From the NCBI GenBank assembly GCA_041648975.1, contig JBAZNZ010000006.1, positions 5,723 to 69,722 on the forward strand: a stretch of 64,000 bases of DNA. The letters run 5' to 3'. The notes under the pieces were generated by a model, which saw only the letters and a program-made list of their open reading frames with translations, did not search any database and was not told the DNA's origin. Position numbers and translations under genes: made by a program. Source of the DNA: Candidatus Omnitrophota bacterium. GTDB taxonomy: Bacteria; Omnitrophota; Gorgyraeia; 2-01-FULL-45-10. Positions 3,474 to 27,354 of this stretch are shown here, one piece after another (within the stretch, counting starts at the first letter, position 1; each line of letters opens with the position of its first letter).

Positions 3474-4337
3474 ATGCAGCAGATAAAAGACGCGCTGACG
3501 AAGTTCCCTAAAAGGGCGACGGATGCGCATAAGGGTGACTTCGGCCACGTCCTTGTCATGGCGGGATCGTGCGGATATACCGGTGCTGCGTATCTCGCGA
3601 GCCAGGCCTCAGCGCTTTCGGGCAGCGGACTCGTGACCCTTGCGATAGCGAAAAGCCTGTACGGTGTGCTAGCGTCAAAATTGACGGAGGTAATGGTCCG
3701 TCCGTTCATCGAGACTAAAGACGGTTCCCTAAGTCTCCTGGCCGAAAAAGACCTTGTCGGCTTTGCGCATAAATGTAATTCTATCGCGATCGGCCCTGGA
3801 CTGTCGCAGAATAAGGAGACGCAGCGGCTTGTAAGGAATCTACTGGAAAAACTCGACAAGCCGGTTGTACTTGACGCGGACGGTATTAACGCATTTGTAG
3901 GATGCCTGGATGCCCTGAAAAATTCGAAGCGACCGCTTGTAATGACACCTCATCCGGGAGAGTTGGCGAGGCTGATAGGGAAAGAGGCGGAAGAGATTCA
4001 GAAGGATAGAAAAAATATTGCTTTAAGCTTTGCTAATGAGTATAATACGGTCTTAGTTTTAAAGGGGCACAACACTGTCATTGCAGAACCGGGCGGCGAA
4101 TATTATGTGAATGAGACCGGCAACGTTGGGATGGCTTCCGGCGGCACAGGCGATGTGTTGACAGGAATAATAGCTAGCTTCATAGGACAGGGGCTAGATC
4201 CTTTTACAGCCGCTGTGTTGGGCGTATATTTTCACGGCCTGGCCGGCGATGAGGCGGCTAAAGAGAAGGGCCAACTCAGCCTGCTCGCTACGGATATATT
4301 AAATAAGTTGCCGGAAGTTTTGACGGTGCTGGGGTAG
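3474..4337 (+). CDS. nnrD: ADP-dependent NAD(P)H-hydrate dehydratase (YjeF C-terminal domain, carbohydrate-kinase fold)
   Basis: HKGDFGHVLVMAGSCGYTGAAYLAS, TPHPGELARL and GGTGDVLTGIIAS are YjeF_C motifs. The TAG stop overlaps the downstream tRNA. Confidence 0.75.
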   Translation: MQQIKDALTKFPKRATDAHKGDFGHVLVMAGSCGYTGAAYLASQASALSGSGLVTLAIAKSLYGVLASKLTEVMVRPFIETKDGSLSLLAEKDLVGFAHKCNSIAIGPGLSQNKETQRLVRNLLEKLDKPVVLDADGINAFVGCLDALKNSKRPLVMTPHPGELARLIGKEAEEIQKDRKNIALSFANEYNTVLVLKGHNTVIAEPGGEYYVNETGNVGMASGGTGDVLTGIIASFIGQGLDPFTAAVLGVYFHGLAGDEAAKEKGQLSLLATDILNKLPEVLTVLG

Positions 4338-4403
4338 CTCAATTGGCAGAGCACCGCATTTGTAATGCGGACGTTGAAGGTTCAATTCCTTTCCCCAGCT
4401 CCA
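4328..4403 (+). tRNA. tRNA-Thr (anticodon TGT)
   Basis: 76-nt cloverleaf. Acceptor gctgggg/ccccagc, D arm gctc-aattggca-gagc, anticodon stem ccgca/tgcgg with loop tttgtaa (anticodon TGT, A37), T arm gaagg-ttcaatt-ccttt, encoded CCA. Confidence 0.8.
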
Positions 4404-4653
4404 AGTTATTTAAGTCGAAATAGTACAGATAGGAATTGAAGCGAATACAATAAATATTTATATAAATGCGAAAATTAAATAAATATAAAATCAAATCATT
4501 GTATTGGAATAAGGATTATACAGCTATACGCATTCACGCGTTAATCTAAAGAAGGCAAGAATATACTGGCATAAAATAACAGGAGTGCCGCTTGCTCAAT
4601 TTACTAAGCCATATGTACGAAAAGGAAATCCGAATCTAAGCAATAGAAAATTG

Positions 4654-4682
4654 CTTTACGGGCTTGTCCATATTCGCTATAA
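4654..4682 (+). promoter_or_regulatory. putative sigma70-type promoter for tRNA-Tyr (TTTACG-17-TATAAT)
   Basis: A perfect -10 TATAAT at 4677-4682, with a weak -35 TTTACG 17 nt upstream, lies about 60 nt before the tRNA-Tyr 5' end. Confidence 0.3.
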
Positions 4683-4743
4683 TGACAAAAAGCTGTTGGA
4701 AACGATACATAATTGGATTGATATATATGTAGATCAGTTTAGT

Positions 4744-5039
4744 GGTGAGGTACCATAGCGGCCAAATGGACCAGACTGTGGTGAACGCAGCGTCATGAAG
4801 AAATTCATGATGGAAAAGCGGGTGAATTCAGGGGAGCCCTTAATAGCGAAACATTAAGGGGAATCCTGAGCCAAGCCTAGAACCGTAATGGTTCTTTGAA
4901 GGTGCAGAGACTAAGCGCCCGCCGCCTAAAGTTCGCAAGAACCAAGGTGATGAGATAGTCCAAGCCTCGAGGTAACTTGAGGGCCCTTGAAATCTGGCGG
5001 CGCAAGCCTTCGATGGTTCGAATCCATCCCTCACCACCA
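4744..5039 (+). tRNA. tRNA-Tyr (anticodon GTA), type II, interrupted by a 210-nt group I intron in the anticodon loop (exons 4744..4779 and 4990..5039)
   Basis: Exon 1 is ggtgagg-ta-ccat-AGCGGCCAAA-tgg-a-ccaga-ctgt. The D loop AGCGGCCAAA matches E. coli tRNA-Tyr. Exon 2 is aaa-tctgg-cggcgcaagccttc (long variable arm, GGC/GCC stem)-gatgg-ttcgaat-ccatc-cctcacc-a-cca. The spliced anticodon loop CUGUAAA is the tRNA-Tyr loop, and the acceptor stem is perfectly paired. Confidence 0.8.
4780..4989 (+). ncRNA. group I self-splicing intron (IC3-like, ORF-less) inside tRNA-Tyr
   Basis: Core elements are recognisable. P-like GAATTCAGGGGAGCC, Q-like GGAATCCTGAGCCAAGCC, R-like GGTGCAGAGACTAAG, S-like GATGAGATAGTCCAAG. 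These match the cyanobacterial/plastid tRNA-Leu(UAA) intron core. The 5' splice site follows U, the intron ends in G, and there is no internal ORF. Confidence 0.7.
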
Positions 5040-5184
5040 ACTTAACAGATTTATTGCATAAGTTCTATAGTGTCAGTGAGTTATGCGACCTGGAGATTTT
5101 AGACTTTAACAAAAAGCCATTAAAATTGGTTCCGGTAAAAATATTTTCTGTCTAATATGGAAAGAGGTCTACAACGAATTAACT

Positions 5185-5264
5185 CTTGAAAATTATAGAT
5201 TCAGAAAAAGGATCTGTATGTAAATGAGACAAAGCGCTGGCTGGTATGGCCAGCGCTTTTAATT
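5185..5264 (+). repeat. about 80-nt intergenic module, copy 1 (roughly 75% identical to 6070..6147), ending in a terminator-like hairpin
   Basis: CTTGAAAATTATAGATTCAGAAAAAGGATCTGTATGTAAATGAGACAAAGCGCTGGCTGGTATGGCCAGCGCTTTT aligns with the second copy. Confidence 0.5.
5233..5264 (+). terminator. rho-independent terminator-like hairpin (AGCGCTGGC-TGGTAT-GCCAGCGCT followed by TTTTAATTT)
   Basis: Perfect 9-bp GC-rich stem followed by a T-rich tract. Lies downstream of tRNA-Tyr. Confidence 0.4.
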
Positions 5265-5279
5265 TGGGGGTAATGAGGT

Positions 5280-5528
5280 ATGAATGCTGACGATTATATA
5301 GGGAAAGGCTCGGAACATATAGCAAAGGCTATTGCAGGGGTTGCGAAAGAGCCTCCGTCATGGCAACAATTATTACTTCAGGAGTATTTGAAGGTGGAAT
5401 TAAACAGAGAACTAATAGAGAGCCAAAGGAAGCATCAGGACGATTCAATTAAGCAGATGAAGCACCTTGTTTATGCAACGTGGGGATTAGTCGTGGCAAC
5501 GTTGTTATTGGTGCTAATAAAGCATTAA
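5280..5528 (+). CDS. hypothetical small protein with C-terminal TM anchor (82 aa)
   Basis: ORF with C-terminal hydrophobic helix WGLVVATLLLVLI. No recognisable motif. Confidence 0.35.
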   Translation: MNADDYIGKGSEHIAKAIAGVAKEPPSWQQLLLQEYLKVELNRELIESQRKHQDDSIKQMKHLVYATWGLVVATLLLVLIKH

Positions 5529-5539
5529 AAGGAGAGGCT

Positions 5540-5932
5540 ATGGGATATTTGATAGGTTTTTATCATAACGCGTGGGGATTGGTTCCATTTGCTTTAGTGG
5601 CATCTTTAGTGTTGTTTTTATTCAGAAGGTGTGGCTTCATCAAATATTTCTCTGTTTTATGGTTGGTTCTAATTGGATACGAATATTCACAAGTCTATGG
5701 TGGGAATGTCTATGGAGCTATGATACAGAGTGGAATGGCAAGGACTTATTCTAAAGTGGTGGGTTATCTTGTGGGGTATCTGTATTTTTCTATCGTTGCT
5801 TCTGTTCCATTTATTTTTATGGATGTAATAAAGAGTAAACTAGCTAAAAAACTATATCTTTTGATGTTCGTTATATTTATGTGGGTAACGCCATTTATAT
5901 GTGAATTTATCGGAGATATTGCGAAAAGATAA
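5540..5932 (+). CDS. hypothetical integral membrane protein (about 4 TM, 130 aa)
   Basis: ATG at 5540 is preceded by AAGGAGAGG. Four hydrophobic segments. The longer 5480 start overlaps the previous ORF. Confidence 0.45.
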   Translation: MGYLIGFYHNAWGLVPFALVASLVLFLFRRCGFIKYFSVLWLVLIGYEYSQVYGGNVYGAMIQSGMARTYSKVVGYLVGYLYFSIVASVPFIFMDVIKSKLAKKLYLLMFVIFMWVTPFICEFIGDIAKR

Positions 5933-6069
5933 GTAGGTAGTAGAGAATGAGGAATTATGGGACGCGTCAAAAAAGGACACGCAGTTTGAGTGGAATGCCC
6001 CCAAAGTGACACGTCCCTAATAGCTGCCTTTGCTGCGCAATGCAGAAAGAGGTGTGAAACGAACAAAAA

Positions 6070-6147
6070 CTTGAAGATTTTAGATATAGAAAACGGATCC
6101 GTGTAAATTGGGAGAAGCGCTGGCTATTGTATAGTCTGCGCTTTTTT
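6070..6147 (+). repeat. about 80-nt intergenic module, copy 2 (paralogue of 5185..5264), ending in a terminator-like hairpin
   Basis: CTTGAAGATTTTAGATATAGAAAACGGATCCGTGTAAATTGGGAGAAGCGCTGGCTATTGTATAGTCTGCGCTTTTTT. Confidence 0.5.
6116..6147 (+). terminator. rho-independent terminator (AGCGC...GCGCT followed by TTTTTT) after the 5540..5932 gene
   Basis: Stem agcgc/gcgct with an internal loop, followed by six T. Confidence 0.45.
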
Positions 6148-6182
6148 GCTTGAACGCGTATTTTGTGAGTCATGGCAAGGAG

Positions 6183-6611
6183 ATGGTAATTATGATGAAA
6201 ATTTTAGCGTATATATTCTTCGCATATCTTTACATATCAGTTGGCGTATTTATTTACTTCTTGATTCGTGATAAACGAGGGAAAGTGCCTTATAATCCTA
6301 ATAACCTAAATGGCTTGTCAGCGATTTTTTCGCTTGGAACACTTATTATGCTTTGGTTAATTTTAAGCATAGGCATAGAAAAGTTTTTACTTGCACCCAT
6401 ACCTTATTCTTGGGGGTGGCACGAAGGAGAAGGAGTTAAGAATTCATTAAGATTCAATTTAGCTTGGATGATTGCTCTTGCAATATCAGTTTATATATTT
6501 TGGATTATAGGAGAGCTTCAAAGGAAAGAAAAGGTTATAAAAGAGTTGCAAGCTCGGTATCAAAAATTAAAGGGGACAGATAAAGGGGAGTGCAAAAATG
6601 GGCATGGCTAA
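6183..6611 (+). CDS. hypothetical membrane protein (3 TM, C-terminal coiled-coil/K-rich tail)
   Basis: ATG at 6183 follows AAGGAG. Hydrophobic helices ILAYIFFAYLYISVGVFIYFLI, LSAIFSLGTLIMLWLILSIGI and LAWMIALAISVYIFWIIG. Overlaps the next gene. Confidence 0.45.
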   Translation: MVIMMKILAYIFFAYLYISVGVFIYFLIRDKRGKVPYNPNNLNGLSAIFSLGTLIMLWLILSIGIEKFLLAPIPYSWGWHEGEGVKNSLRFNLAWMIALAISVYIFWIIGELQRKEKVIKELQARYQKLKGTDKGECKNGHG

Positions 6612-7143
6612 TCTTTCAGACATAAAATCAGAGCCGATTCTTCTCAAAGATAAGGAGTGGAGCTTGATTGATGGCGAGCTTTGTCTTGTAACGGAATTTT
6701 TCCCAATGATGGGGAGTAGCGTTAAGGATGGGGTTGTAATATCGCCCAGCACCTCCGCCCCTTACGCAAAAATTACTATTAGATGTAAAAAAATACCCAC
6801 TGAAATAACCGCCTTTATAACACATTCCATTGACTTTGCTAACCTTTGGGATGCCTTTAGGTATAGAGAAACACATAATAAGACCGATGAGATACTTATT
6901 TATTGGTCAACGAAGCATTATAATAGTGTCATTGCAAAGATAATATCCTCGGTTATGCTAACTATCCTCGGTGGCACGTCTCTGCCGAAAATCCTTATTA
7001 TGCTTCGTCCTAACGGTGCTTATGAAAAAAGCGGGAGTGATTCAAGATTGCCCCACGATATAAATGCAAATGTTTTTATATATGGCTCATTACCTATTAA
7101 GTGTTGGATACCTGATATTATGAATGAGGCAGTTAAACATTAA
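6598..7143 (+). CDS. hypothetical soluble protein (181 aa)
   Basis: The start overlaps the upstream gene end, suggesting translational coupling. No known motif recognised. Confidence 0.45.
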   Translation: MGMANLSDIKSEPILLKDKEWSLIDGELCLVTEFFPMMGSSVKDGVVISPSTSAPYAKITIRCKKIPTEITAFITHSIDFANLWDAFRYRETHNKTDEILIYWSTKHYNSVIAKIISSVMLTILGGTSLPKILIMLRPNGAYEKSGSDSRLPHDINANVFIYGSLPIKCWIPDIMNEAVKH

Positions 7144-7166
7144 AAGCTAAATAGAGAGGTGCGAAA

Positions 7167-7532
7167 ATGTCAGAGCAAAATCCTGCAACAATAATAAAAA
7201 ACGCAGTAGAAGACCTTGCGGGGAAAATAATATTTTTATCAGGCGAAGTAGCAACTTTTAAGCAAGCTCTGTGCGACCTCGTAATCAAGGCGAATGATTC
7301 GAGCAATAAAATGCTTAAGGCTTCAAAGATGTATTTTGCAGGAAGTATTATTCTGTCAGCAGTTATAGCCTTTAGTGCGTTAGTTCCTAAGTGGGGTTTT
7401 GTATCCACTCAAGGCGGTTATACATTAAAGTATAATCAGGTTACAGGGAAAGCTGTTGTGTATAAATGTAATTATTCAACCGAAGGGAAGTATGTATACC
7501 AAGAATTCCCTGTCGAAAAATATAAGCCTTAA
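7167..7532 (+). CDS. hypothetical protein with one central TM helix (121 aa)
   Basis: Follows the previous ORF after 23 nt. Central helix is AGSIILSAVIAFSALV. Third gene of an apparent operon. Confidence 0.4.
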   Translation: MSEQNPATIIKNAVEDLAGKIIFLSGEVATFKQALCDLVIKANDSSNKMLKASKMYFAGSIILSAVIAFSALVPKWGFVSTQGGYTLKYNQVTGKAVVYKCNYSTEGKYVYQEFPVEKYKP

Positions 7533-7640
7533 GATTTCGTTGTTAAAGAAATAAATGAACAATCAAGCCATAGCATATTGCGGATGCTTTACCGATATGC
7601 AGGAAATGTTGATTCTTGACAGCATACCTTTTTAGGTGTC

Positions 7641-7681
7641 TTGACACTACAGGTGTAATATGCTACACTTATCGGTGTAAT
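7641..7681 (+). promoter_or_regulatory. sigma70 promoter (TTGACA-17-TACACT) with flanking GGTGTAAT direct repeats (putative operator)
   Basis: Consensus -35 TTGACA at 7641-7646 and -10 TACACT at 7664-7669. GGTGTAAT occurs at 7652-7659 and again at 7674-7681, straddling the -10 element. The site lies just upstream of the wHTH-nucleotidyltransferase gene. Confidence 0.45.
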
Positions 7682-7694
7682 GTGAGGAACGCAT

Positions 7695-8240
7695 ATGATC
7701 CCGCTTAAATCGACAATAACTAAAAAGATACTAAATTACTTTTTTGTCAATCCACAAGAAAGCTTATATGTAAATGAGCTGTCCCGGAAGCTATTTCTGG
7801 ATAAAAGGAACCTGGTAAAAAAGATCAAGGAGCTAGAGGCTGAAGGGATATTGGTTCATGAGACGAGAGGCAACCTTAAGTTATATGCTATAAATGCTAG
7901 CTATCCTTTATATAAAGAATTTCGTAAAATTATCATGACAACGGTAGGAGTCGAGGAACAACTGAGGCATCTTTTAAAAGGAGTTACTGGAGTTAAAGAA
8001 GCGTATATTTATGGCTCATATGCGAAAAATGCTATGGATACTCATAGCGATATCGACGTTCTTATTGTAGGTAGTGTAGGTGTTGTAACCGTACAAAAGC
8101 ACATAAGCAAGCTACAGAGAGAAATAGATAGGGAGATAAGCGTTACTGTTATGACCAAAAAGGACTTTACCCGGCGCGTAAAGGCAAAAGATCCCTTTAT
8201 TAGTGGTGTGCTCAAACAAAAGCACATAAAGATAATATGA
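7695..8240 (+). CDS. winged-HTH DNA-binding domain fused to a minimal nucleotidyltransferase (MNT/Pol-beta fold), MntA/AbiEii-like
   Basis: The N-terminus (ILNYFFVNPQESLYVNELSRKLFLDKRNLVKKIKELEAEGIL) looks like an ArsR/MarR-type wHTH. The C-terminus carries the NTase motif GSYAKNAMDTHSDIDVLIVG. Confidence 0.65.
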   Translation: MIPLKSTITKKILNYFFVNPQESLYVNELSRKLFLDKRNLVKKIKELEAEGILVHETRGNLKLYAINASYPLYKEFRKIIMTTVGVEEQLRHLLKGVTGVKEAYIYGSYAKNAMDTHSDIDVLIVGSVGVVTVQKHISKLQREIDREISVTVMTKKDFTRRVKAKDPFISGVLKQKHIKII

Positions 8241-8644
8241 TGAAATTCGAAGATAAATATTTCAAAGATTTTGTATTTACAAAGGATCAGGTCAAAAAGA
8301 ATTTCGATAATGCCTTAAAAGATATTAAGATTGCGCGTCAAGATGCCATCCCGGATGTCAAATTCACATACTCTTATGATGCACTTATTAAAGGTGGTAT
8401 TGCTTTGATAAGCAGCTACAACAAAAAAGTCAAAAGTGCGCCAGGGCATCATGTGAAGATTATAGAGATGGTTGCGAAAATATTAAATGACGACACAATT
8501 GAAGCTGTGGGCGGCGCTATGCGCTCAAAGCGCAATGTGGATTTCTACGATGGCGGGGTGGAGGTTACCGAAAAAGAGGCGTGCGAATATTTGGGTTTCG
8601 TAGACAGTATTTTGAAAAAAATTGAAAAAGCCTTAAATATCTGA
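8237..8644 (+). CDS. hypothetical protein, putative partner of the upstream nucleotidyltransferase (possible toxin or antitoxin)
   Basis: ATGA overlap with the NTase gene suggests a coupled two-gene module. No canonical HEPN Rx4-6H motif was seen, so its family is undetermined. Confidence 0.4.
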   Translation: MMKFEDKYFKDFVFTKDQVKKNFDNALKDIKIARQDAIPDVKFTYSYDALIKGGIALISSYNKKVKSAPGHHVKIIEMVAKILNDDTIEAVGGAMRSKRNVDFYDGGVEVTEKEACEYLGFVDSILKKIEKALNI

Positions 8645-8657
8645 TAATATGCTTGCG

Positions 8658-8705
8658 GGTGAGGAAGTTTCTATATGTTAAGTTCGAGGCGAACCCTCAC
8701 CACCA
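8658..8705 (+). repeat. tRNA-Tyr-derived acceptor/T-arm-like fragment (GGTGAGG...GTTCGAGGCGAACCCTCACCACCA), putative att remnant
   Basis: Its 5' GGTGAGG and 3' CCCTCACC-ACCA reproduce the tRNA-Tyr acceptor stem, and it ends in a T-arm-like CGAAC. It is homologous to 11459..11503. Confidence 0.5.
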
Positions 8706-8884
8706 GTAATATCTACTCAGTTCGACTGAGTATTATAATACCCGCGTTGAAGATGGATTCGCAAAAAGGGTTTTTAAGGGAAAAAAGAATTTTTTCCCTT
8801 ATCGGCGCACGAGAACATCTATGCGGAAGAAAGGATAACATTAAAAGGAAAACATCAGGTTTTCCTTTTAAGGAGCCCATAGCC

Positions 8885-8916
8885 TAAGTTCAGGGCGACG
8901 AATCCGTCCCTCACAA
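8885..8916 (+). repeat. degenerate copy of the tRNA-Tyr 3' end (CGAATCCGTCCCTCAC against tRNA CGAATCCATCCCTCAC)
   Basis: One mismatch over 16 nt to the tRNA-Tyr T-arm/acceptor region. The upstream CCCATAGCC resembles the tRNA-Tyr D-arm CCATAGCGG. Confidence 0.4.
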
Positions 8917-9015
8917 TAGTTAAATGAGTGTGCTATGTGATAATTTTAGACCTAATAATACCCGTAAATTAGCATCCGCAGTTGTGGGGTGCTAATTTTA
9001 TTTTAAGGGGGTAAT

Positions 9016-9609
9016 GTGGAAGAAAAAAATCTAAACGAGACAATTAAAGAAGCGGTTACTGCAGAAAGCCGTAAAGACAGTTGGTTAGAAACGCTTGGCA
9101 TATCATGGGAAGATGTTATTAAGGCACTTGAACAATCGGAGAAAGATGAGAAATATTTAACGGAATTAGCTAAAAAAACAGCATCTAATAAATCGAGACA
9201 CTTTATAGTTGTGCGCAGTATAGTATTAGACATTCATTTGCTTTTGGATTATACCGTAAGCTCTGTCATTGGGTTTATGCTTGTCTTTCGGGGTGGACAT
9301 CATGGAAAGGAATATAATGGGCAAGAGGTTCAGGAAATTATAGATTTTATACATGACAAGGTTGACTATGCAAAGAGGGTGCATATCATAGAGAGGCTGA
9401 AGATATTTAGCAAAGACGCTATCAAAATATTATATGCAGTTAATAATCTTCGAGTTGCTTTTGCTCACGGTAAAAAGAACGTAGAGTACAATTACTTCAA
9501 TAAATCGGTATTTGATAAGAATACTATTGATAGACTACAGGCAGATAAAAACAAGGTATTGGGAGAATACTCGGAGTTTCTGAAGAATAGCACAGATAAG
9601 AAAACATAA
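9016..9609 (+). CDS. hypothetical protein with C-terminal Rx4H motif (possible HEPN/Abi-like)
   Basis: GTG start follows AGGGGG by 6 nt. The C-terminal LRVAFAHG matches the HEPN catalytic Rx4-6H pattern. Confidence 0.4.
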   Translation: MEEKNLNETIKEAVTAESRKDSWLETLGISWEDVIKALEQSEKDEKYLTELAKKTASNKSRHFIVVRSIVLDIHLLLDYTVSSVIGFMLVFRGGHHGKEYNGQEVQEIIDFIHDKVDYAKRVHIIERLKIFSKDAIKILYAVNNLRVAFAHGKKNVEYNYFNKSVFDKNTIDRLQADKNKVLGEYSEFLKNSTDKKT

Positions 9610-9618
9610 GGAGAAGTA

Positions 9619-9646
9619 AGTAGCTGACGTTTAAACGTCAACTACT
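9619..9646. repeat. near-perfect 28-nt palindrome centred on GTTTAAAC
   Basis: AGTAGCTGACGTTTAAACGTCAACTACT has one mismatch. It lies just after the 9016..9609 stop codon. It may be a terminator (no T-tract) or a protein-binding site. Confidence 0.3.
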
Positions 9647-9688
9647 TTGTGGGTAACTAGAGTATTGGGATGAATTAAGAATAAAATA

Positions 9689-10228
9689 ATGAAAATTAAG
9701 ATTAGTAAAATTCAAGCCGCAGAAGCGCAGCTAAATGAAGCTATCTTTTTATTTTTTGATGAGGCTAATCCTGTAGTTATTGAAACATTGATAGGGGCTG
9801 TTATAGGTATATTGCGACCTATAGGTAAAAAATATGGCATTCAAGCCCCTTCCCATGATTCGGATAAAATAAAGCCAGAATATAAGAAGCTATGGATAGA
9901 CACTCTTCATAAAGCTCAGAATTTTTTTAAACACGCTGATAATGATTCAGATGATATTTTATCTTACGAAAATGATATATTGCCTTTTTGCATTGTTGAA
10001 GCATGTCATTTGTTCAGATATGTCGCATCCGATAAATGCTTGAAATATCGACAGTCTCAGCCTGCCCTACTGTTTGAAATATGGTTTTGGCTGAAATATC
10101 CCCATTTATTAAAAGACTTAGCTGAGACTGAGAAATTCTTGCAGGCTGTAGGTATGCCAAAAAGTTTTAGTGTTGATGATTTCGAAGTGCTGAAAATGTT
10201 GGCAGATAAGTATCGGATAAAATTATAG
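9689..10228 (+). CDS. hypothetical protein (179 aa)
   Basis: ORF with its ATG following GGGATGAATTAAGAATAAAATA. No recognised motif. Confidence 0.4.
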   Translation: MKIKISKIQAAEAQLNEAIFLFFDEANPVVIETLIGAVIGILRPIGKKYGIQAPSHDSDKIKPEYKKLWIDTLHKAQNFFKHADNDSDDILSYENDILPFCIVEACHLFRYVASDKCLKYRQSQPALLFEIWFWLKYPHLLKDLAETEKFLQAVGMPKSFSVDDFEVLKMLADKYRIKL

Positions 10229-10238
10229 TTTTCTATAA

Positions 10239-19100: not shown

Positions 19101-19103
19101 AAG

Positions 19104-20039: not shown

Positions 20040-20042
20040 AAT

Positions 20043-21041
20043 ATGGTAACGTTCAAATACCCTGCAGCCTTATGGCTGATCCTTCTGCTGCCTCTTCTTT
20101 TCATAATAGTTAAGAGCAGGCGCACCGACACGACATTCATCTTTTCCTCACGCGAACTCCTGGAGGGGCTTAAGCCGACGCTCCGCCTACGGCTCTCGAA
20201 GTTCATGATATTTTTTAGGGTTATAGCGCTGTGCCTTTTCATAATGGCCCTCGCCAGGCCGCAATCTGTTCTGGAAGGAACCAAGACAGTATCCGAAGGC
20301 GTCGACATTGTAGTTGCGCTTGACACATCGACGAGCATGCTGGCCGAAGACTTCAGGTTGGGGGCGTCGCGCGTGAACAGGTATGATGTGGTAAAGGAAG
20401 TCGTCAAGGAGTTCTTCAGGAAGAGGAAAGATGACAGGATCGGTATGATAGCGTTCGCGGCGCGCGCTTATACCGTATGCCCCCTGACTACCGATTACGC
20501 GTGGCTGAACGAAAATCTCGATAGGGTGAGGGTCGGAATGATCGAAGATGCCACCGCCATCGGCTCGGCGCTGGCCAGCGCCAGCAACAGGCTGCGCACA
20601 TCCAAAACAAAATCCAAGATAATAATACTTCTTACGGACGGCGTAAATAACGCGGGCACGATCTCGCCTATAGTCGCGGCCGAGGCCGCGAAGGCGCTTA
20701 AGATAAAGATATACACGATAGGCGTGGGCACAAAGGGGCTCGTCCCTTATCCTTTTAAGGACGTCTACGGCAGGACAGTTTACCAGAAGATACCTATAGA
20801 GATCGACGAAGAGGTCCTCAAAAAGATCGCCGATATCACGGGCGGAAAATATTACCGCGCGACGGACACGGAGACCCTGCGTAAGTTATTCGACGACATA
20901 AACCGGCTTGAAAAATCGAATATCGAGCATTTCGGCTACAGGGAATATAGCGAGCTCTTCTATATTTTCCTTATACCGGCGCTGATTATGCTGGCGCTTG
21001 AGATATTCCTTGCGAACACTCTATTTTTAAAGGTGCCATGA
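20043..21041 (+). CDS. batA: BatA-like von Willebrand factor A domain membrane protein
   Basis: vWA MIDAS motif DTSTSM with LLTDGVNNAG. N-terminal TM helices. Confidence 0.75.
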   Translation: MVTFKYPAALWLILLLPLLFIIVKSRRTDTTFIFSSRELLEGLKPTLRLRLSKFMIFFRVIALCLFIMALARPQSVLEGTKTVSEGVDIVVALDTSTSMLAEDFRLGASRVNRYDVVKEVVKEFFRKRKDDRIGMIAFAARAYTVCPLTTDYAWLNENLDRVRVGMIEDATAIGSALASASNRLRTSKTKSKIIILLTDGVNNAGTISPIVAAEAAKALKIKIYTIGVGTKGLVPYPFKDVYGRTVYQKIPIEIDEEVLKKIADITGGKYYRATDTETLRKLFDDINRLEKSNIEHFGYREYSELFYIFLIPALIMLALEIFLANTLFLKVP

Positions 21042-22048
21042 ACTACGCGAACCCGGATTATTTTAATATTATCTATTCTTTGACCGCGCTCCTGGTGCTG
21101 TTTTATATATGGACCTTCAGGCGCAGGCAGGCGCGCATCAGAAAGTTTGCGGACAAGACGTTACTGTCGAGCATCGCACCCACGGTAAGTATGAGGCGGA
21201 AGTTGATAAAGATGGCGCTGATCACGATAGCCGTATCCTTAAGCTTCATCGCGCTCGCGCGTCCGCAATGGGGGTTCGAATGGGAAGAGACGAAGAGGAT
21301 GGGGCTGGATATATTGGTAGCCATAGACGTCTCTAACAGCATGCTCGCTACAGATGTCAAGCCCAACAGGCTCGAACGTTCCAAATTTGCCGTAAAGGAC
21401 ATGATAAAGAAGCTGAACGGCGACAGGATAGGGCTGATAGCGTTTGCCGGAGCGTCGTTCCTGCAGTGCCCGCTGACGATCGATTATAACGGATTCGTTC
21501 TCGCCCTTGATGACCTGAACACAGAGACGATCCCCAGGGGAGGGACATCCATAGCGAGCGCTATAAAAGAAGCGATGAGGATATTGAGCGGGCAGGAGAA
21601 GAAGTACAAAGTGCTCGTCATCATCACCGACGGGGAAGATCTGGAGGGCGATGCGCTCTCGGCGGCAAAAGAGGCCGCTGAGGCGGGAATAAGGATATAC
21701 TGCATAGGCGTAGGGACGGCGGAAGGCGAATTGATACCCACCATAGGGGAGCGCGGCGACAGGGAATATCTCGTAGACAGTAAAGGTAATATTGTAAAGA
21801 CGAAACTGAACGAAGATGTGCTGAAACAGATAGCGATCGCTACAGACGGCAATTATGTCCGGGCGACGCAGGCCGAATTCGGGCTCGTCCTGTTATATGA
21901 TAAAAGCATTTCAAAGCTTGAAAAACGCGACATCGAAGCCAAAATGAGGAAGCGTTACAGGGAGAAGTTTCAGTATTTCCTGGCGTTCGCCATACTACTG
22001 CTCTTCATCGAACCGCTCATTTCCGAGAGGAGGCGTATCGCGACATGA
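21038..22048 (+). CDS. batB: BatB-like vWA domain membrane protein
   Basis: DVSNSM, ITDGEDLEG. Start ATGA-overlaps the batA stop. Confidence 0.75.
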   Translation: MNYANPDYFNIIYSLTALLVLFYIWTFRRRQARIRKFADKTLLSSIAPTVSMRRKLIKMALITIAVSLSFIALARPQWGFEWEETKRMGLDILVAIDVSNSMLATDVKPNRLERSKFAVKDMIKKLNGDRIGLIAFAGASFLQCPLTIDYNGFVLALDDLNTETIPRGGTSIASAIKEAMRILSGQEKKYKVLVIITDGEDLEGDALSAAKEAAEAGIRIYCIGVGTAEGELIPTIGERGDREYLVDSKGNIVKTKLNEDVLKQIAIATDGNYVRATQAEFGLVLLYDKSISKLEKRDIEAKMRKRYREKFQYFLAFAILLLFIEPLISERRRIAT

Positions 22049-23253
22049 TAAGGGTGATCTCGATCGCGTTCCTCATGTGCTTCGCGATCAGCGAATGCGC
22101 CTTCGCCACGCTTAAAGATGATGTGAAAAAAGGCAATTTATTATATAATGATAAAAAATATTCCGAAGCGGCCAAGATATATTCCGCGGCGTTGAAAGAA
22201 AAACGCGATTCCGGGGTTGTGAATTTCAATATCGGGGCCGCGAAGTACAAGGAGGGGTCATATTCCGGTTCGATAGATTCTTTCAATAAAGCGATAGCTT
22301 CAGGTGACGCTGGATTGGTGCCAAAGGCAGATTACAATATCGGAAACGTCCAGTACAAGATAGGGACAACAAAACAGAAGAGCGATTTCAATAAGACTAA
22401 AGAACTGTACGAGACAGCGCTTAAATTTTATAAGCGCGCTATAGACCTGGATCCGTCCGACAAAGACGCGAAATATAATTATGAGTTCGTTGAGAACAGG
22501 CTCATGCAGCTGATGGAGCAGAAAAACCAGGAGCAGGAGAAAAAACAGGATCAGAAACAGGATAAGGACCAGAAGAAGCAGGACAAAGAGCAGCAGAAGG
22601 ATCAGCAGAAAAACCAGGATAAACAGCAACAGGATAAGCAGGAACAGCAGAAGGATCAGCAAAAAGGGTCTCAGCCCCAGGATGCCGGCGGCGGGGGAAG
22701 TCAGGAAAAAGAGGAAACTGGGAAGCAGGAAGAGCAGCAGAAAGAAGGGAAATCCAGCTCCGAACAAGATAAAGGTGACCAGAAGGACCAGGATCAAAAG
22801 CAGGGCGAGGACGAGAAGAACGCCGCTGACAACAAAAAAGAGGGCGAAGAGTCTGATCAGCAGAAGAAAGAAGGCGGCGAGCAGGAGGAAAATCCGAAGG
22901 AGCAGGACGGCGATAAGGAAGAACAGCAGAAGCAGGAAGGCGAGAAGGAGAATAAGCAGCAGCCCGGGGATCAGGAAAAGGATAAGGGCGGCACGGGAGA
23001 AGAAGAGCAGGAGCAGCCGAAGCCATCTGAAGAAGGAAAGGAAGAAGAGACAGCCGGTATTTCAAAAGAGGACGAGGAAGGCGGAGGATTGACAGCATAT
23101 CAGTCACCGCAGGAGCAGGGAGAGCCTGGTGAGATGTCGGAACAGGAAGCTAAGATGATACTCGAAGGATATAAAGGGGAAGAGGCTACCGGCGGCGCGA
23201 TAAAGATGATGAAGAAAAGGGTGAACCTTCCGGAGCCGTCCAGAGATTGGTAA
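22045..23253 (+). CDS. batC: BatC-like TPR protein with a long K/Q/E/D-rich low-complexity region
   Basis: N-terminal TPR-like helices (YNIGNVQYKIG, YETALKFYKRAIDLDP), followed by about 250 aa of QEQEKKQDQK-type repeats. Confidence 0.6.
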   Translation: MIRVISIAFLMCFAISECAFATLKDDVKKGNLLYNDKKYSEAAKIYSAALKEKRDSGVVNFNIGAAKYKEGSYSGSIDSFNKAIASGDAGLVPKADYNIGNVQYKIGTTKQKSDFNKTKELYETALKFYKRAIDLDPSDKDAKYNYEFVENRLMQLMEQKNQEQEKKQDQKQDKDQKKQDKEQQKDQQKNQDKQQQDKQEQQKDQQKGSQPQDAGGGGSQEKEETGKQEEQQKEGKSSSEQDKGDQKDQDQKQGEDEKNAADNKKEGEESDQQKKEGGEQEENPKEQDGDKEEQQKQEGEKENKQQPGDQEKDKGGTGEEEQEQPKPSEEGKEEETAGISKEDEEGGGLTAYQSPQEQGEPGEMSEQEAKMILEGYKGEEATGGAIKMMKKRVNLPEPSRDW

Positions 23254-25094
23254 ATAAGGTGTGTATGAAAAAACGCATTTATATATTTATAGTTTTAGCC
23301 ATTACGATCTGTTCGCTGGCGTCCTTATTATATGCAGAGGACGGAAGATTCGAAGTAAGCCTTGACCGCCGGCAGGTAGCCCTCGGCGAGTCCGCGCAAC
23401 TGGGGCTCTCCTTCCGCGGGACCCAGAGCATGCCTGCGCCCGACATAGGGAATATCAGCGGACTCGAGATACGGTATCTAGGGCCGTCGACCATGATGAC
23501 CGTCATCAACGGCCAGGTATCCACCGCCATAACGCACATGTATACCGTCCTACCCTTGAAGATAGGGACTTTTCAGTTGGGGCCGTTCTCTTTCAAATAT
23601 AAAGGAGACAATTACGTATCAAATACGGTGACGCTGGAGGCTACGGCTGAGAAAGTGATCGCGGCAAAGAGCGTCGAAGAGTCATCCGCGGATAATATTG
23701 AACTGGGCGACAGGATATTCGTAAAGCTTGAGATCAGCAAGGCCTCGGCTTATGTAAACGAACTTATTCCGGTAAAAGTGAAATTTTATGTGAACAGGCT
23801 CAATGTGAGCGATATCCAGTTGCCGACCTTTGCCCAGGAAGGGTTTTCAAAGATAGAGTTCAAGGAACCGAAACAATACAGGGAGCGTATGGGAGGATTG
23901 TTATACGACGTCCTCGAGTTCAATACGAATATATTTGGGACCAAGAGCGGCGACTACTCGCTCGGCCCCGCAAAGATCAAGTGCAATGTGATTGCCAGAA
24001 AGAGGCTGGCCAGGATGCCGTCTATGATGGATGATTACGACAGTTCACCCTATAGGGATTCGTTTGACGATTTCTTTACCCGGTATGAAAAGCATCCCAT
24101 GGAGCTGAAATCCCAGGAAACCAGGATAACGATAGAGCCCATCCCTGCCGAAGGCAGGCCTAAAGACTATCTCGGCGCTGTCGGCGATTATCAGTTCATA
24201 TACAGCGCCAATCCTAAGAAAGTAAAAGTGGGTGATCCTTTGACGGTCACTATGGTCATTAACGGCACAGGCAACTTCAATACGGTGCTTTCGCCCAGGA
24301 TAGATAATACCGAAGGTTTTAAGGTCTACGATCCGCAGGTCAAGACCGAAGAGAATAGGAAGACCTTTTCCCAGGTCCTCATCCCAACTACCGACATGAT
24401 CACACAGATACCTAAAGCTGTCTTCAGTTATTTTGACCCGGCGCAGAAGATGTACAAGGTGATAACTCAGGATCCGATCCCGCTGCAGGTGGAGAAGGGC
24501 ATTGAAGAGTCGCCGTCCCAGGTGATAGGCGCGGCATCCGTGCCTGAGCGGAGGACTGAGGAAAAAGAAGATCTGGCCAGAGACATCATATATATAAAGG
24601 AATCTCCGGGCGCATGGCTGCCTAAAAATTACCAGATATACAGGAGTAATCTATTTATTGTCCTTACAATTGTACCAATTGTGTTATTGATATCTCTTTA
24701 TGTAACCAATGCGCGCAGGAACAGGATCAGATACGACACGGAATACGCCGCGCGCCTGGCTTCTTTCCGGTATGCCAAAAGAAGTGTGAGGGAGTTGAAA
24801 CGACACTTAAAACCGGAAGACCCTAGGATATTTTACGAGACCCTGTTCAAGACGCTTCAGGGGTATCTCGGGAACCGTTTCTACATCGCTCCGGCAGGAA
24901 CAACATATAGTGAGATAGAACGGATCGCCCTGGAGAAGGGCGTAGACCGCGATATCATCCAGAAGATAAAGAAATTGTTCGATGCCTGCGATGAGATGAG
25001 ATTCGCTTTCTCGAAGACGGATATCTATAAGATGCAGGATAACGTAAAGGATGTGGCGGAGATCATAAGATACCTGGAGCGCAGAAAATTATGA
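23247..25094 (+). CDS. batD: BatD-like oxygen-tolerance protein
   Basis: Size of 615 aa, N-terminal signal peptide, a C-terminal TM helix (LFIVLTIVPIVLLISLYV) followed by a cytoplasmic tail, and operon position all match BatD. Confidence 0.65.
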   Translation: MVNKVCMKKRIYIFIVLAITICSLASLLYAEDGRFEVSLDRRQVALGESAQLGLSFRGTQSMPAPDIGNISGLEIRYLGPSTMMTVINGQVSTAITHMYTVLPLKIGTFQLGPFSFKYKGDNYVSNTVTLEATAEKVIAAKSVEESSADNIELGDRIFVKLEISKASAYVNELIPVKVKFYVNRLNVSDIQLPTFAQEGFSKIEFKEPKQYRERMGGLLYDVLEFNTNIFGTKSGDYSLGPAKIKCNVIARKRLARMPSMMDDYDSSPYRDSFDDFFTRYEKHPMELKSQETRITIEPIPAEGRPKDYLGAVGDYQFIYSANPKKVKVGDPLTVTMVINGTGNFNTVLSPRIDNTEGFKVYDPQVKTEENRKTFSQVLIPTTDMITQIPKAVFSYFDPAQKMYKVITQDPIPLQVEKGIEESPSQVIGAASVPERRTEEKEDLARDIIYIKESPGAWLPKNYQIYRSNLFIVLTIVPIVLLISLYVTNARRNRIRYDTEYAARLASFRYAKRSVRELKRHLKPEDPRIFYETLFKTLQGYLGNRFYIAPAGTTYSEIERIALEKGVDRDIIQKIKKLFDACDEMRFAFSKTDIYKMQDNVKDVAEIIRYLERRKL

Positions 25095-25861
25095 AGAGAT
25101 ATATAGCGGCTTTATTTATATTGTTTACCCTTGCAAGCCGGGCGTGTGCCGCGGAACCTGCCGCGAAGGATCCTAACCAGTTATTTTACTCAGCGAATCG
25201 TTCATACGGGGCCGGAGACTATAAGAAGGCGCTCGAAGAGTACCTTATGGTGCTCGATACCGGAGTGGAGAACGGAAGGCTGCATTATAATATAGGTAAC
25301 GGTTTCTTTAAACTCGGAAAGATCGGTTACGCTATCCTATGCTATGAGAGGGCCAGGAGGCTCATTCCGCAGGATGGCGACCTGAAGTCCAACCTAGCGT
25401 ACGCCAAGACAATGGCAGGGACTTCGTATCCTGACGACAGCGCCATCCGGAGGCTTACAGGGTACATTAAGGCGCCATTTTTGGACATGAACCTGAATGC
25501 CCTCGCGAACCTGACATTGGCCCTGTATCTTATCATCATGGTGGTCCTGGCAATATTTATCTTTAACCGTATAATTGCCAGGAAGGGTATATTATTATTC
25601 ATCGTTCTGACGGCGATATTTTTGGTCGCACTCAGCGCGGTCTCTGTCCGCTATTACGATGAAGAGATCTTGAGGCACGGTATAATCATAGAAAAAGATG
25701 TCGAATGTAAATACGAGCCTATAGACAAATCCACAACTTATTACAAGCTGCACGAGGGGGATGAGGTGACCGTCCTGACGACGAGAGAAGGATGGCGCCG
25801 GATAAAGCGTCCCGACGGAAAACTCGCCTGGATCAAAAAAGAAGCGGTCGAGATCATATAA
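25091..25861 (+). CDS. batE: BatE-like TPR/SH3-domain protein
   Basis: Signal peptide, TPR helices, TM segment, and a C-terminal SH3-like region EGDEVTVLTTREGWRRIKRPDGKLAWIKKEAV. Confidence 0.55.
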   Translation: MKRYIAALFILFTLASRACAAEPAAKDPNQLFYSANRSYGAGDYKKALEEYLMVLDTGVENGRLHYNIGNGFFKLGKIGYAILCYERARRLIPQDGDLKSNLAYAKTMAGTSYPDDSAIRRLTGYIKAPFLDMNLNALANLTLALYLIIMVVLAIFIFNRIIARKGILLFIVLTAIFLVALSAVSVRYYDEEILRHGIIIEKDVECKYEPIDKSTTYYKLHEGDEVTVLTTREGWRRIKRPDGKLAWIKKEAVEII

Positions 25862-25874
25862 ATTAAAAAAATAC

Positions 25875-25902
25875 TTGACATATTTGAGTTTTTTGTTATA
25901 AT
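25875..25902 (+). promoter_or_regulatory. strong sigma70 promoter (TTGACA-16-TATAAT with A-rich UP region) for tRNA-Thr and tuf
   Basis: Perfect consensus hexamers with 16-nt spacing, preceded by ATTAAAAAAATA. About 150 nt upstream of tRNA-Thr(GGU). Confidence 0.5.
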
Positions 25903-26053
25903 AAAAAAACTCTATATATTGTATTAGATATTATATTATATAGTTTATTTAGAAGAGTTTTATACACGATAACTCTGACGTGGAGGAGTTTTTGTAATTT
26001 TTGTTTATAGCCGCTGCAGAGTCAATGCCTGATGACATTAGCGGGACTGAGCG

Positions 26054-26129
26054 GCTGCAGTAGCTCAGTCGGTAGAGCACATCCTTGGTAAGGATGAGGT
26101 CATCGGTTCAATCCCGATCTGCAGCTCCA
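26054..26129 (+). tRNA. tRNA-Thr (anticodon GGT)
   Basis: 76-nt cloverleaf. Acceptor gctgcag/ctgcagc, D arm gctc-agtcggta-gagc, anticodon stem catcc/ggatg with loop ttggtaa (anticodon GGT), T arm with ttcaatc, CCA. Confidence 0.85.
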
Positions 26130-26157
26130 TGAATAAGTCAAAGAGGAGGGAGAGTTT

Positions 26158-27354
26158 ATGGCAAAGGAAGCGTTTGTAAGATCTAAGCCGCACGTGAACA
26201 TCGGCACAATCGGCCATATCGATCACGGCAAGACTACTTTGACGGCAGCAATTTTAGCGACCCTTGCCAAAAAGGGCAAGGCGCAGGTTAAGTCCTACGC
26301 CGATATCGCCAAGGGCGGCACCGTCAGGGATGAAACCAAGACCGTTACTATCGCCGTAGCGCACGTTGAATACGAGACCGAGAAGAGGCATTACGCCCAT
26401 ATAGACTGCCCCGGACACGCCGATTACATCAAGAATATGATAACCGGAGCCGCGCAGATGGACGGAGCCATACTTGTGGTATCGGCAGTGGACGGCCCGA
26501 TGCCCCAGACAAGAGAGCATATCCTCCTGGCCCGCCAGGTCAATGTCCCTTCAATAGTCGTATTCCTCAATAAAGTAGACCTTGTGGAAGACAAGGAACT
26601 CGTGGACCTGGTCGAGCTGGAAGTGAGGGAGCTTCTCACCAAGTACCAGTTCCCCGGAGACAAGACCCCCGTGATAAGGGGCAGCGCATTAAAAGCGATG
26701 TCGGCGCCCGATAACCCGGAATCCACAAAGAGCATATTCGAGCTCATGGAAGCATGCGATACGTTCATCCCCGAGCCCAAGAGGGACATAGATAAACCCT
26801 TCCTCATGCCCATAGAAGACGTCTTCTCGATAACAGGCCGCGGCACAGTAGGAACAGGCCGGGTCGAGAGAGGCCAGATAAAGGTGGGCGAGGAGATCGA
26901 GATAGTAGGCATACGCCCCACAAAGAAGTCCGTAGTCACGGGCGTTGAGATGTTCAGGAAGCTGCTCGATTCAGGACAAGCCGGAGACAACATCGGCGTC
27001 CTGTTAAGGGGTATCGAGAAGACAGACCTCGAGAGGGGGCAGGTCCTGGCAAAGCCGGGTTCCATCACCCCTCACACCAAGTTCAAGGCAGAGGTATATA
27101 TATTGAGCAAAGAAGAAGGAGGCCGTCACACGCCCTTCTTTAACGGTTACCGCCCGCAGTTCTACTTCAGGACCACAGACGTCACGGGAGTAGTAACCCT
27201 CCCCAAAGAGGTCGAGATGGTCATGCCCGGCGATAACGTAAGCTTCGAAGTAGTTCTGATAACCCCGATAGCCATGGAAAAAGAGTTGAGGTTCGCCATA
27301 CGTGAAGGCGGACATACTGTTGGCGCAGGGGTCGTAACCGAAGTCATAGAATAG
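26158..27354 (+). CDS. tuf: elongation factor Tu (copy 1)
   Basis: [26 protein letters not shown]. Predicted protein and nested-ORF pattern identical to the copy at 41715..42911. Confidence 0.95.

Follow-up and report, generated by a model that had tools for sequence, protein, structure and literature searches.

A tufB-type tRNA cluster of a Candidatus Omnitrophota bacterium, probably pulled apart in separate episodes

In Escherichia coli MG1655, the genes thrU(UGU)-tyrU(GUA)-glyT(UCC)-thrT(GGU) precede tufB-secE-nusG-rplK, and direct inspection placed these four tRNAs within 442 nt. The same four anticodons occur in the same order, on a single strand and ahead of tuf, in a stretch of 64,000 nucleotides (hereafter the window) from Candidatus Omnitrophota bacterium (assembly GCA_041648975.1, contig JBAZNZ010000006.1, positions 5,723 to 69,722 of the forward strand), where 11,314 nt lie between tRNA-Tyr and tRNA-Gly and a further 9,626 nt between tRNA-Gly and tRNA-Thr(GGU). 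The question raised by this locus is whether a cluster of the compact type was opened here and, if so, by what kinds of events. An earlier note, made from the sequence alone, had recognized the gene order, its identity with that of the E. coli operon (under 1 kb there) and the two gaps of 11.3 and 9.6 kb, filled by an AT-rich stretch, a PAS kinase and a receiver in the first case and by a receiver and a MoxR-Bat operon in the second. ARAGORN, the joining of two tRNA-Tyr exons and Pfam bore out all of this, whereas the framing of the kinase, Bat and island regions alike as lineage-specific acquisitions at tRNA hotspots stood only in part. The four tRNA genes are probably orthologues of thrU-tyrU-glyT-thrT, belonging to a cluster that would have been pulled apart in separate episodes of differing age and kind.

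The compact form was assessed by a Tuf-anchored genome survey, with one genome per species, which gave at least 80 loci in many phyla with matches at no more than 77% identity; it was used for comparison across phyla, close Omnitrophota relatives not being among the matches listed. Among these matches, the full compact block Thr(UGU)-Tyr-Gly(UCC)-Thr(GGU)-tuf-Trp was present in 14 of 80 loci, with its start 0.4–1.4 kb upstream of tuf and with no case of more than about 0.6 kb between adjacent tRNAs. Its hosts belonged to Calditrichota, Rokubacteria, Myxococcota, Acidobacteriota, Planctomycetota, Desulfobacterota, Firmicutes and others. Several further loci presented variants of the cluster without one tRNA, and those without any tRNA, with only tRNA-Trp or with a cut-off cluster were presumably second tuf copies or short contigs. 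Because the compact form is widespread across phyla, the split of a tufB-type cluster is a fair reading of the window, and the comparison supports regarding its arrangement as a probable disrupted derivative, not a compact operon. Two other Omnitrophota loci of the survey (L006 and L027) were dropped as a test for the compact cluster, both being str-operon tuf copies.

According to Brandis et al. 2019 (PMC6735719), this region is part of an ancient supercluster, in which multigene insertions have now and then come between the operons in some lineages. In common with it, the window has these four anticodons in the same order and on the same strand, its last tRNA immediately precedes tuf, and secE-nusG-rplKAJL-rpoBC lie downstream. 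RpoB was confirmed downstream of tuf, and the open reading frames (ORFs) at 28200-30886 agree in number and size, which is how they were compared, with the Pfam-named secE-nusG-rplKAJL genes of relatives, in which secE-nusG-rplKAJL-rpoBC are placed after tuf-Trp. Unlike the insertions known from the supercluster, those of the window fall within the tRNA part of the operon and not between operons; moreover, the four-tRNA cluster spans 21.8 kb against 0.44 kb in the compact form, and a tRNA-Trp is found between tuf and secE. Transcription of the whole cluster as one operon appears implausible, because a terminator hairpin is predicted 3′ of tRNA-Tyr and promoter-like sites of their own precede tRNA-Tyr and tRNA-Gly.

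The genomic context was fetched for six related genomes, designated here by their locus labels: L083/L149 (GCA_041643025.1; RpoB 83% identical to that of the window), L150 (GCA_023818895.1; RpoB 84%), L151 (GCA_028699255.1; RpoB 87%), and three in which RpoB was not covered, namely L085 (JGI 3300037810), L087 (ENA ERZ28656667) and L148 (JGI 3300045146), the last being the closest relative (BatE 62%, MoxR 91%). In addition, a second assembly of the same organism was available (L152, GCA_028715235.1).

These relatives separated the two gaps. The gap between tRNA-Gly and tRNA-Thr(GGU) contains a receiver and a MoxR/Bat operon of eight co-directional genes, in which MoxR AAA_3, DUF58, the BatA/BatB vWA proteins, BatD and TPR proteins were all identified by Pfam. 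Bat stands for Bacteroides aerotolerance, and the MoxR-vWA operon has been described in Bacteroides and Leptospira. The window operon follows that order (MoxR AAA_3, DUF58, membrane protein, BatA, BatB, TPR, BatD, TPR-SH3); unlike the known operon, it has a conserved single-domain receiver at its head and lies embedded between two tRNAs of the tuf cluster. The same Gly...Thr(GGU) block was found in L148, L149 and L151, the gap measuring 9.5–9.9 kb in these three and in the window. For example, the order in L149 is NnrD, then Thr(UGU)-Tyr-Gly in 720 nt, then REC-MoxR-DUF58-hypothetical-BatA-BatB-x-BatD-BatE, then Thr(GGU)-tuf-Trp-secE-nusG-rplKAJL-rpoBC. Similarly, Gly-REC-MoxR is kept in L085 and L087, and BatD-BatE-Thr(GGU)-tuf in L150, where the upstream part of the Bat operon has been replaced by Wood-Ljungdahl pathway genes. 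Across the relatives, identity amounts to 83–87% for RpoB, 84–91% for MoxR and 49–62% for BatE. The GC content at third codon positions (GC3) of the Bat genes is 0.58–0.67 and their codon distance 0.05–0.12, against 0.59±0.04 and 0.09±0.02 in 43 flanking genes taken as reference, and the borders of the block hold no copy of the tRNA-Gly 3′ end nor of either end of tRNA-Thr(GGU). Because it occupies the same position in every relative covering it, has host-like codon usage and lacks attachment site (att) scars, the Bat block is a fixed and compositionally native feature of the clade and was not acquired recently by the window genome. The claim of a lineage-specific acquisition does not hold for this half of the cluster, in which the relatives show the same spaced arrangement at the scale of this genome.

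Judged from gene order, the Bat event is shown to be old and clade-wide: the receiver and the eight-gene operon would have come between tRNA-Gly and tRNA-Thr(GGU) in the ancestor of the whole sampled clade and been kept thereafter, by a route of arrival that is not recoverable from sequence data. One possible but doubtful route is that of a tRNA-targeted island, inserted at tRNA-Gly or tRNA-Thr(GGU) in the clade ancestor and then domesticated, with its integrase and att sites eroded. Such an origin would account for a block lying exactly between two tRNAs of a cluster that is compact elsewhere, and it would agree with the activity of the neighboring tRNA-Tyr as an integration site in the same lineage and with the same-type trailer elements that follow several tRNAs in the clade. 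However, neither tRNA end is repeated, no integrase is present, the composition is native, many phyla have Bat operons as ordinary parts of the chromosome, and an island so eroded is indistinguishable from an ordinary translocation.

Some local differences among the relatives were also recorded around this block. In L150 (1-10004), an AbiEi/AbiEii pair is also among the genes replacing the upstream Bat part; in L151, tRNA-Gly is inverted (1376-1449); and rpmG lies between tuf and tRNA-Trp in L150 and L151, being absent from that position in the window and in L149.

The other gap has a different record. The Tyr-Gly interval measures 321 nt in L149, 926 nt in L148, 2631 nt in L085, 7102 nt in L087 and 11,314 nt in the window, and its contents differ: L085 carries two small ORFs, an M54 peptidase and an HD protein, and L087 a radical SAM protein, an epimerase, a hydrolase and a double receiver. 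In the window, the interval consists of two AT-rich islets, described below, followed by the PAS kinase and its receiver, which were found at this position in no fetched relative. The kinase has a GC3 of 0.53 and a codon distance of 0.074, near native, the short receiver deviating more. Its best homologs were Omnitrophota PAS kinases with 51–59% identity over 54–72% of the query, and the homolog search gave no full-length orthologue. The kinase block thus appears lineage-specific in position, with no sign of foreign origin. Lying after the old tRNA-Tyr trailer and before the promoter of tRNA-Gly, the kinase might be a native Omnitrophota gene that was relocated or acquired long ago. Signaling genes are also found just upstream of tRNA-Gly and REC-MoxR-Bat elsewhere: besides the kinase and receiver of the window (11876-15908), a double receiver occurs in L087 (16751-17497) and an HD-domain protein in L085 (12963-13874). 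A regulatory connection may exist between such genes and the orphan receiver that belongs to the Bat operon.

Taken literally, the earlier note would have both gaps lineage-specific, with the Bat operon, the kinase and the island all recent foreign cargo at tRNA hotspots. This is very improbable. It is true that tRNA genes flank both gaps, that compact clusters exist in other phyla and that the island part is foreign; nevertheless, the Bat block is at the same position in all covering relatives, with host-like codons and no att scars, and the kinase has near-native codon usage and only Omnitrophota homologs. The profiling of GC content and codon usage that had been proposed separated the blocks, the AT-rich island being atypical, the Bat block host-like and the kinase near native. 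What stands of the hotspot claim is the Tyr-Gly gap, with its variable interval and its foreign AT-rich island, the kinase excepted.

The island consists of two adjacent islets, A and B, each bounded at its far end by a copy of the end of tRNA-Tyr. The putative att core is formed by the last 12 nt of this gene, CCCTCACCACCA (5028-5039), exact copies of which lie at 8694-8705 and 11492-11503, all on the forward strand. This sequence occurs exactly three times in the window against 0.01 expected by chance, and none of 100 shuffles reached three. The distal arms (8669-8705 and 11467-11503) share 84% identity over 37 nt (TTCTATMTGTTAAGT...CGAACCCTCACCACCA). The GC content of the islets is 36–38% against a genomic 50%, and it rises back after the last att copy. 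Likewise, the nine longer islet ORFs have a GC3 of 0.29–0.42, which is 4–7 standard deviations below the reference of 0.59±0.04, and a codon distance of 0.14–0.22.

The comparison with relatives provided the other part of the evidence. The islets are absent from L149 and L087, and only remnants of about 0.2 kb are present in L085 and L148. In L085, an exact second copy of the tRNA-Tyr end lies 220 nt downstream of the gene. The CCA, lost from the working gene, is still present in this copy, after which comes the trailer that L083 has next to its tRNA-Tyr; the intervening 220 nt show homology with the left end of islet B. In L148, a second copy of the tRNA-Tyr end (20/21) is followed by 225 nt with 79% identity to the left end of islet A. 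Moreover, the DNA 3′ of the third att copy in the window matches the tRNA-Tyr trailer of L148 and L087. Repeats, composition and comparison thus show what appears to be a recent tandem integration at tRNA-Tyr. Two small AT-rich elements would have integrated serially, by site-specific recombination, into the 3′ end of this gene, islet B first and islet A next, between the tRNA and B; with each integration the end of the tRNA gene would have been restored and a 12-nt core copy left at the distal border, just behind an arm of about 25 nt common to both elements.

The cargo of the islets was examined with Pfam, PHROGs, PADLOC and NCBIfam. In islet A, PADLOC identified PDC-M05A (E 6e-44), an MNT-like nucleotidyltransferase, and PDC-M05B (E 2e-9), whose genes overlap by 4 nt and represent a candidate defence pair. 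In islet B, the overlapping genes of a type II toxin-antitoxin pair were recognized, namely the toxin BrnT (75.7 bits against a Pfam cut-off of 34.5) and the antitoxin BrnA (26.7 against 26.1, barely above). The other eight scanned island ORFs had no credible match in these four collections, apart from one marginal PHROG (E 0.009), and NCBIfam gave only a weak MntA match among the island ORFs. With the same collections, no integrase, recombinase or phage protein was found in the scanned island ORFs of at least 82 aa, and a list of all ORFs of at least 40 aa held no longer unscanned recombinase candidate. BLAST of the island DNA returned no phage match, the sole plasmid match being the BrnT/BrnA module, and a search for attP-like junctions by two patterns in viral contigs found none. 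Because no recombinase occurs in the scanned ORFs, they are termed integrase-less islets or remnants and not complete islands; they may be decayed remnants or have been moved in trans.

Integrative islands that target tRNA 3′ ends, including tandem arrays, form a class catalogued by Islander/TIGER (PMC12424338, PMC9580842). The islets resemble them in the direct repeats of the tRNA 3′ end at their far borders, the rebuilt tRNA, the foreign composition, the sporadic occurrence among relatives, the tandem array with the newest member next to the tRNA, and the toxin-antitoxin/defence cargo; they differ in having no integrase, in their very small size (2.8 and 3.7 kb) and in a core of only 12 nt.

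The extra tRNA-Tyr ends could otherwise be decayed tandem duplicates of the gene, and not integration scars, the AT-rich DNA having accumulated in some other way. A T-arm-like sequence upstream of the 12-nt core in the repeats would fit such duplicates, and a stub of tRNA-Gly, discussed below, is also readable as a decayed copy. This origin is nonetheless most unlikely: 3′ ends alone were kept, never 5′ halves; the copies resemble each other (84% over 37 nt) but are not tRNA-like beyond about 24 nt; the intervening DNA is compositionally foreign; and in L085 both CCA and native trailer are found with the displaced copy, the end of the working gene being derived from an element, which is the standard outcome of recombination between a phage-type and a bacterial attachment site (attP × attB).

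An assembly artefact, with the AT-rich stretch or the joins at identical tuf copies misjoined in a metagenome contig, is scarcely credible, since, although the lineage is known from metagenome-assembled genomes (MAGs), tuf forms a perfect 1.2-kb repeat, the contigs of many relatives break after tRNA-Thr(UGU) and the Tyr|A and A|B joins are seen in the window alone, the independent assembly L152 spans BrnA-att3-kinase-REC-Gly-REC-MoxR in the identical order, L148 independently joins a tRNA-Tyr end copy to the left end of islet A, and the order BatE-Thr(GGU)-tuf-Trp-secE recurs in three relatives.

Two side observations in L148 touch on integration in this region. Near the end of its contig (173-214), tRNA-Thr(UGU) is reduced to its 3′ half, with unrelated sequence in place of the 5′ half, which hints at another integration, into tRNA-Thr(UGU). 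In addition, homology to the left end of islet B in the window (8764-8876) was noted in its Thr-Tyr spacer (259-372). The Thr-Tyr spacer of the window itself (4404-4743) had no match among the fetched relatives, in which this spacer measures 23–233 nt.

The tRNA-Tyr gene at which the islets lie was itself altered by an episode of another kind. No intact tRNA-Tyr was called in the window by ARAGORN or by the Rfam tRNA model, because a group I intron splits its anticodon loop. The Rfam model RF00028 matched 4768-4982 over its full length (1-253) with 86.4 bits (E 6e-21; gathering score 50). The limits between exons and intron were read by eye between the two tRNA halves, and the joined exons (4744-4779 and 4990-5039) gave an 86-nt tRNA-Tyr(GUA) that was accepted by ARAGORN. 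These exons are 87–92% identical to the intron-less tRNA-Tyr of three relatives (L083/L149, L085 and L087), with compensatory changes in stems. The intron has no ORF, and its P1 is formed by CUGUG/CGCAG with a U-1·G wobble. An orthologous intron occupies the same site in L148 (467-689; 91 bits); the two precursors share about 84% identity and an unchanged core, and of 58 predicted pairs compared between them none is broken and five are changed on both sides (P2, P5, P8). Because the exons match the intron-less genes of relatives, and L148 shares the intron that the three others lack, a native tRNA-Tyr probably gained it in an ancestor common to L148 and the window organism. The conservation of structure suggests that the intron, which must be removed for a working tRNA, would be removed by self-splicing. 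The import of an intron-bearing tRNA-Tyr together with the island, suggested by a Thr-Tyr spacer that is AT-rich as well, was considered and rejected: the exons match native genes, and L148 has the intron without the islets.

Introns of this class are already known. K. P. Williams (bioRxiv 2020, doi 10.1101/2020.01.27.920355) raised the number of intron-bearing bacterial tRNAs from the four classical ones to 21 cases, and the seed alignment of that preprint includes Mba143.Tyr.4Ug, at the same site as the intron of the window; it has been stated elsewhere that tRNAscan-SE is unable to detect such intron-bearing tRNA genes (PMC8450103). With the class Tyr.4Ug the window intron shares the site (CUGU/intron/AAA), the U-1 wobble in P1, the omega G, the small size (210 nt), the lack of an ORF and a full RF00028 match. 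In sequence, it is no closer to that seed (67% aligned identity) than to seeds from other tRNAs (78% to Lys.2Ug and 74% to Phe.2Ug), and it may represent an independent arrival at the Tyr.4Ug site.

The tRNA-Gly gene presents a further local change. As the earlier note had observed, its 5′ end is duplicated: positions 1–12 of tRNA-Gly, GCGGGCGTAGCT, recur without change at 16104-16115. The bare 12-mer is within chance, other 12-mers of window tRNAs recurring at 34551, 48889 and 57606; the stub is nevertheless regarded as real because a conserved tRNA-Gly promoter and leader precede 16104, and the same promoter and leader lie directly upstream of the intact tRNA-Gly in L148 and L087. The 238 nt between the stub and the intact gene had no match in relatives, but the hairpin with which they start (UCCGCC...GGCGGA) is of a type, termed E3, that follows the intact tRNA-Gly in L083/L149. 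As a border of the kinase block, a reading also considered, this repeat was excluded by position and promoter context, lying downstream of the kinase and bracketing only about 250 nt. These 250 nt separate tRNA-Gly from its own promoter and represent either an insertion with a 12-nt duplication or the remainder of a decayed upstream tRNA-Gly copy.

Several tRNA genes of the clade are followed by trailers whose hairpins pair with the CCA end. A two-hairpin trailer, termed E1, occurs in the window after tRNA-Gly, after tRNA-Trp (27824-27900) and at the old tRNA-Tyr end (11501-11600), the sequence at this last site being presumed to be the original tRNA-Tyr trailer; in relatives it was observed after tRNA-Tyr and tRNA-Thr(GGU) (L148 737-835; L149 11628-11700). 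Its first hairpin pairs with the encoded CCA end (CCAAAUUUYGC...GCRAAAUUUGG), and its fold z-scores are –3.4 (Gly) and –5.6 (Trp). Rfam gave no match to E1 (nothing at E≤1); it might serve as a signal for processing or termination or, alternatively, represent a small mobile element. Its identification as a hammerhead-like ribozyme, for which the motifs CUGAnGA and GAAA are present, was rejected, the motif order fitting no hammerhead topology and Rfam returning nothing at that threshold. The E3 trailer (CCA|UCCGCC...GGCGGAUG) also pairs with the CCA end and was located after tRNA-Gly in L083/L149 (L083 11578-11640), after tRNA-Thr(GGU) in L150 (11078-11140) and after the 12-nt tRNA-Gly stub in the window (16116-16160). 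It is conceivable, albeit improbable, that the islets and the CCA-pairing E1/E3 hairpins form one unrecognized family of very small Omnitrophota mobile elements. If so, members of this family would target 3′ ends in several different tRNAs (Tyr, Gly, Thr, Trp) without a recombinase of their own, the tRNA-end/trailer hairpin would be the recognition module, and one mechanism would shape the Thr-Tyr-Gly region, including the tRNA-Gly stub.

Several points weigh against the picture of a compact cluster opened in successive episodes. The synteny comparison proposed by the earlier note found the compact Thr-Tyr-Gly-Thr-tuf form in many phyla, and in no Omnitrophota genome looked at; because of this, the direction of the Bat event (insertion or ancestral state) rests on outgroup phyla only. 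The genomes of only six relatives were compared, and the end of six of the nine NnrD-anchored loci just after tRNA-Thr or nnrD narrows the sample. Regarding the islets, no integrase is present in the scanned ORFs and a free or attP form was not found in viral contigs; the left ends of A and B are dissimilar, and their proteins share no homology. Moreover, in L148 the working tRNA-Tyr is separated from the displaced copy by an E1 trailer, so that E1 may be the end of yet another element and not a native trailer, which would blur the right limit of the foreign DNA. Finally, the covariation evidence for the intron is thin, coming from two sequences only.

The flanks of the cluster offered additional observations. 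The upstream neighbor nnrD (NAD(P)H-hydrate dehydratase, 3474-4337) adjoins tRNA-Thr in relatives as well, and its last 10 nt are the first 10 nt of tRNA-Thr(UGU) (4328-4337), an overlap kept in several relatives (L081, L083, L085 10855-10864). NnrD has hundreds of Omnitrophota homologs at 70–77% identity, and a scan of metagenome contigs gave matches at no more than 48% identity, mostly in human-gut assemblies. Six of the nine NnrD-anchored loci (L081, L082, L084, L086, L088, L153) stop within about 200 nt after nnrD/tRNA-Thr(UGU), which suggests strain heterogeneity or repeats at the hotspot that break assemblies. On the other side, a second tuf (41715-42911) lies downstream of rpoBC and is presumably the str-operon copy. 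The two copies are identical over all 1197 nt and over 9 nt upstream, a perfect repeat that poses an assembly risk and that would fit gene conversion of the tufA/tufB type. The features of the window are collected in Table 1.

Table 1. Coordinates of the tRNA cluster, the intron, the islets and the gene blocks in the window
Feature	Positions	Strand	Basis or remark
tRNA-Thr(UGU), thrU-type	4328..4403	+	ARAGORN; Rfam tRNA 69.8 bits
Thr-Tyr spacer, 340 nt, 30.6% GC	4404..4743	+	Promoter-like site 4655-4683 (TTTACG-17-TATAAT)
tRNA-Tyr(GUA) 5′ exon	4744..4779	+	Ends ...CUGU, U35 = –1 nucleotide
Group I intron, 210 nt	4780..4989	+	Anticodon loop, between U35 and A36; last nucleotide G (omega G)
tRNA-Tyr 3′ exon with encoded CCA	4990..5039	+	Exon joining, comparison with relatives
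Islet A, 3.67 kb, 37.6% GC	5040..8705	+
Islet A left end	5040..5264		Common to L148; terminator hairpin at 5231-5259
Islet A cargo	7695..8240 (PDC-M05A nucleotidyltransferase); 8237..8644 (PDC-M05B)	+	Also five ORFans
Islet A right arm and att copy 2	8669..8705	+
Islet B, 2.80 kb, 36.3% GC	8706..11503	+
Islet B left end	8706..8878		Homologous to sequence directly after tRNA-Tyr in L085
Islet B cargo	10956..11237 (BrnT); 11188..11454 (BrnA)	+	Also three ORFans
Islet B right arm and att copy 3	11467..11503	+
Decayed E1-type trailer hairpin region	11504..11600	+	Homologous to sequence directly after tRNA-Tyr in L148, L087
Multi-PAS/GAF/HisKA/HATPase histidine kinase, 1220 aa	11876..15538	+	Pfam
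Single-domain receiver	15540..15908	+	Pfam
tRNA-Gly promoter, leader and 12-nt tRNA-Gly stub	16039..16115	+	CTTGTTA-N16-ATGATATAAT, leader aaataaatc
Stretch between stub and intact tRNA-Gly, 238 nt	16116..16353	+	Starts with E3-type hairpin
tRNA-Gly(UCC), glyT-type	16354..16427	+	ARAGORN; Rfam 71.6 bits
E1 trailer, two tandem copies	16428..16590	+	Cores 16441-16502 and 16522-16583, 77% identical; first hairpin pairs with CCA end
Receiver and MoxR/Bat block	16710..25861	+	Pfam, synteny, codon usage
Receiver of the block	16710..17114	+
MoxR AAA_3; DUF58; hypothetical; BatA	Starts at 17196; 18225; 19104; 20043	+	Pfam
BatB; TPR protein; BatD; TPR-SH3 BatE	Starts at 21038; 22045; 23247; 25091	+	Pfam
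tRNA-Thr(GGU), thrT-type	26054..26129	+	ARAGORN, Rfam; 28 nt upstream of tuf
tuf, tufB-type copy	26158..27354	+	Pfam GTP_EFTU
tRNA-Trp(CCA)	27751..27826	+	ARAGORN; downstream of tuf

All parts of this locus are of known kinds, namely tRNA-targeted islands, group I introns in tRNAs and insertions into the translation supercluster, and the current understanding of these is unchanged. The window illustrates, on a small scale, successive integrations at a single tRNA gene in a phylum of which little is known. Together with the orthologue in a sister genome, its intron brings an Omnitrophota case to a class of tRNA-Tyr introns encountered here so far only in the seed alignment of one preprint. For annotators, it implies that a tRNA seemingly missing from such MAGs may be split by an intron and skipped by standard finders, which affects estimates of completeness. 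The locus indicates that translation genes can be driven apart even in their most conserved block, and that the two gaps of its tRNA cluster have very different histories, one being an old and fixed operon insertion and the other a live integration hotspot.

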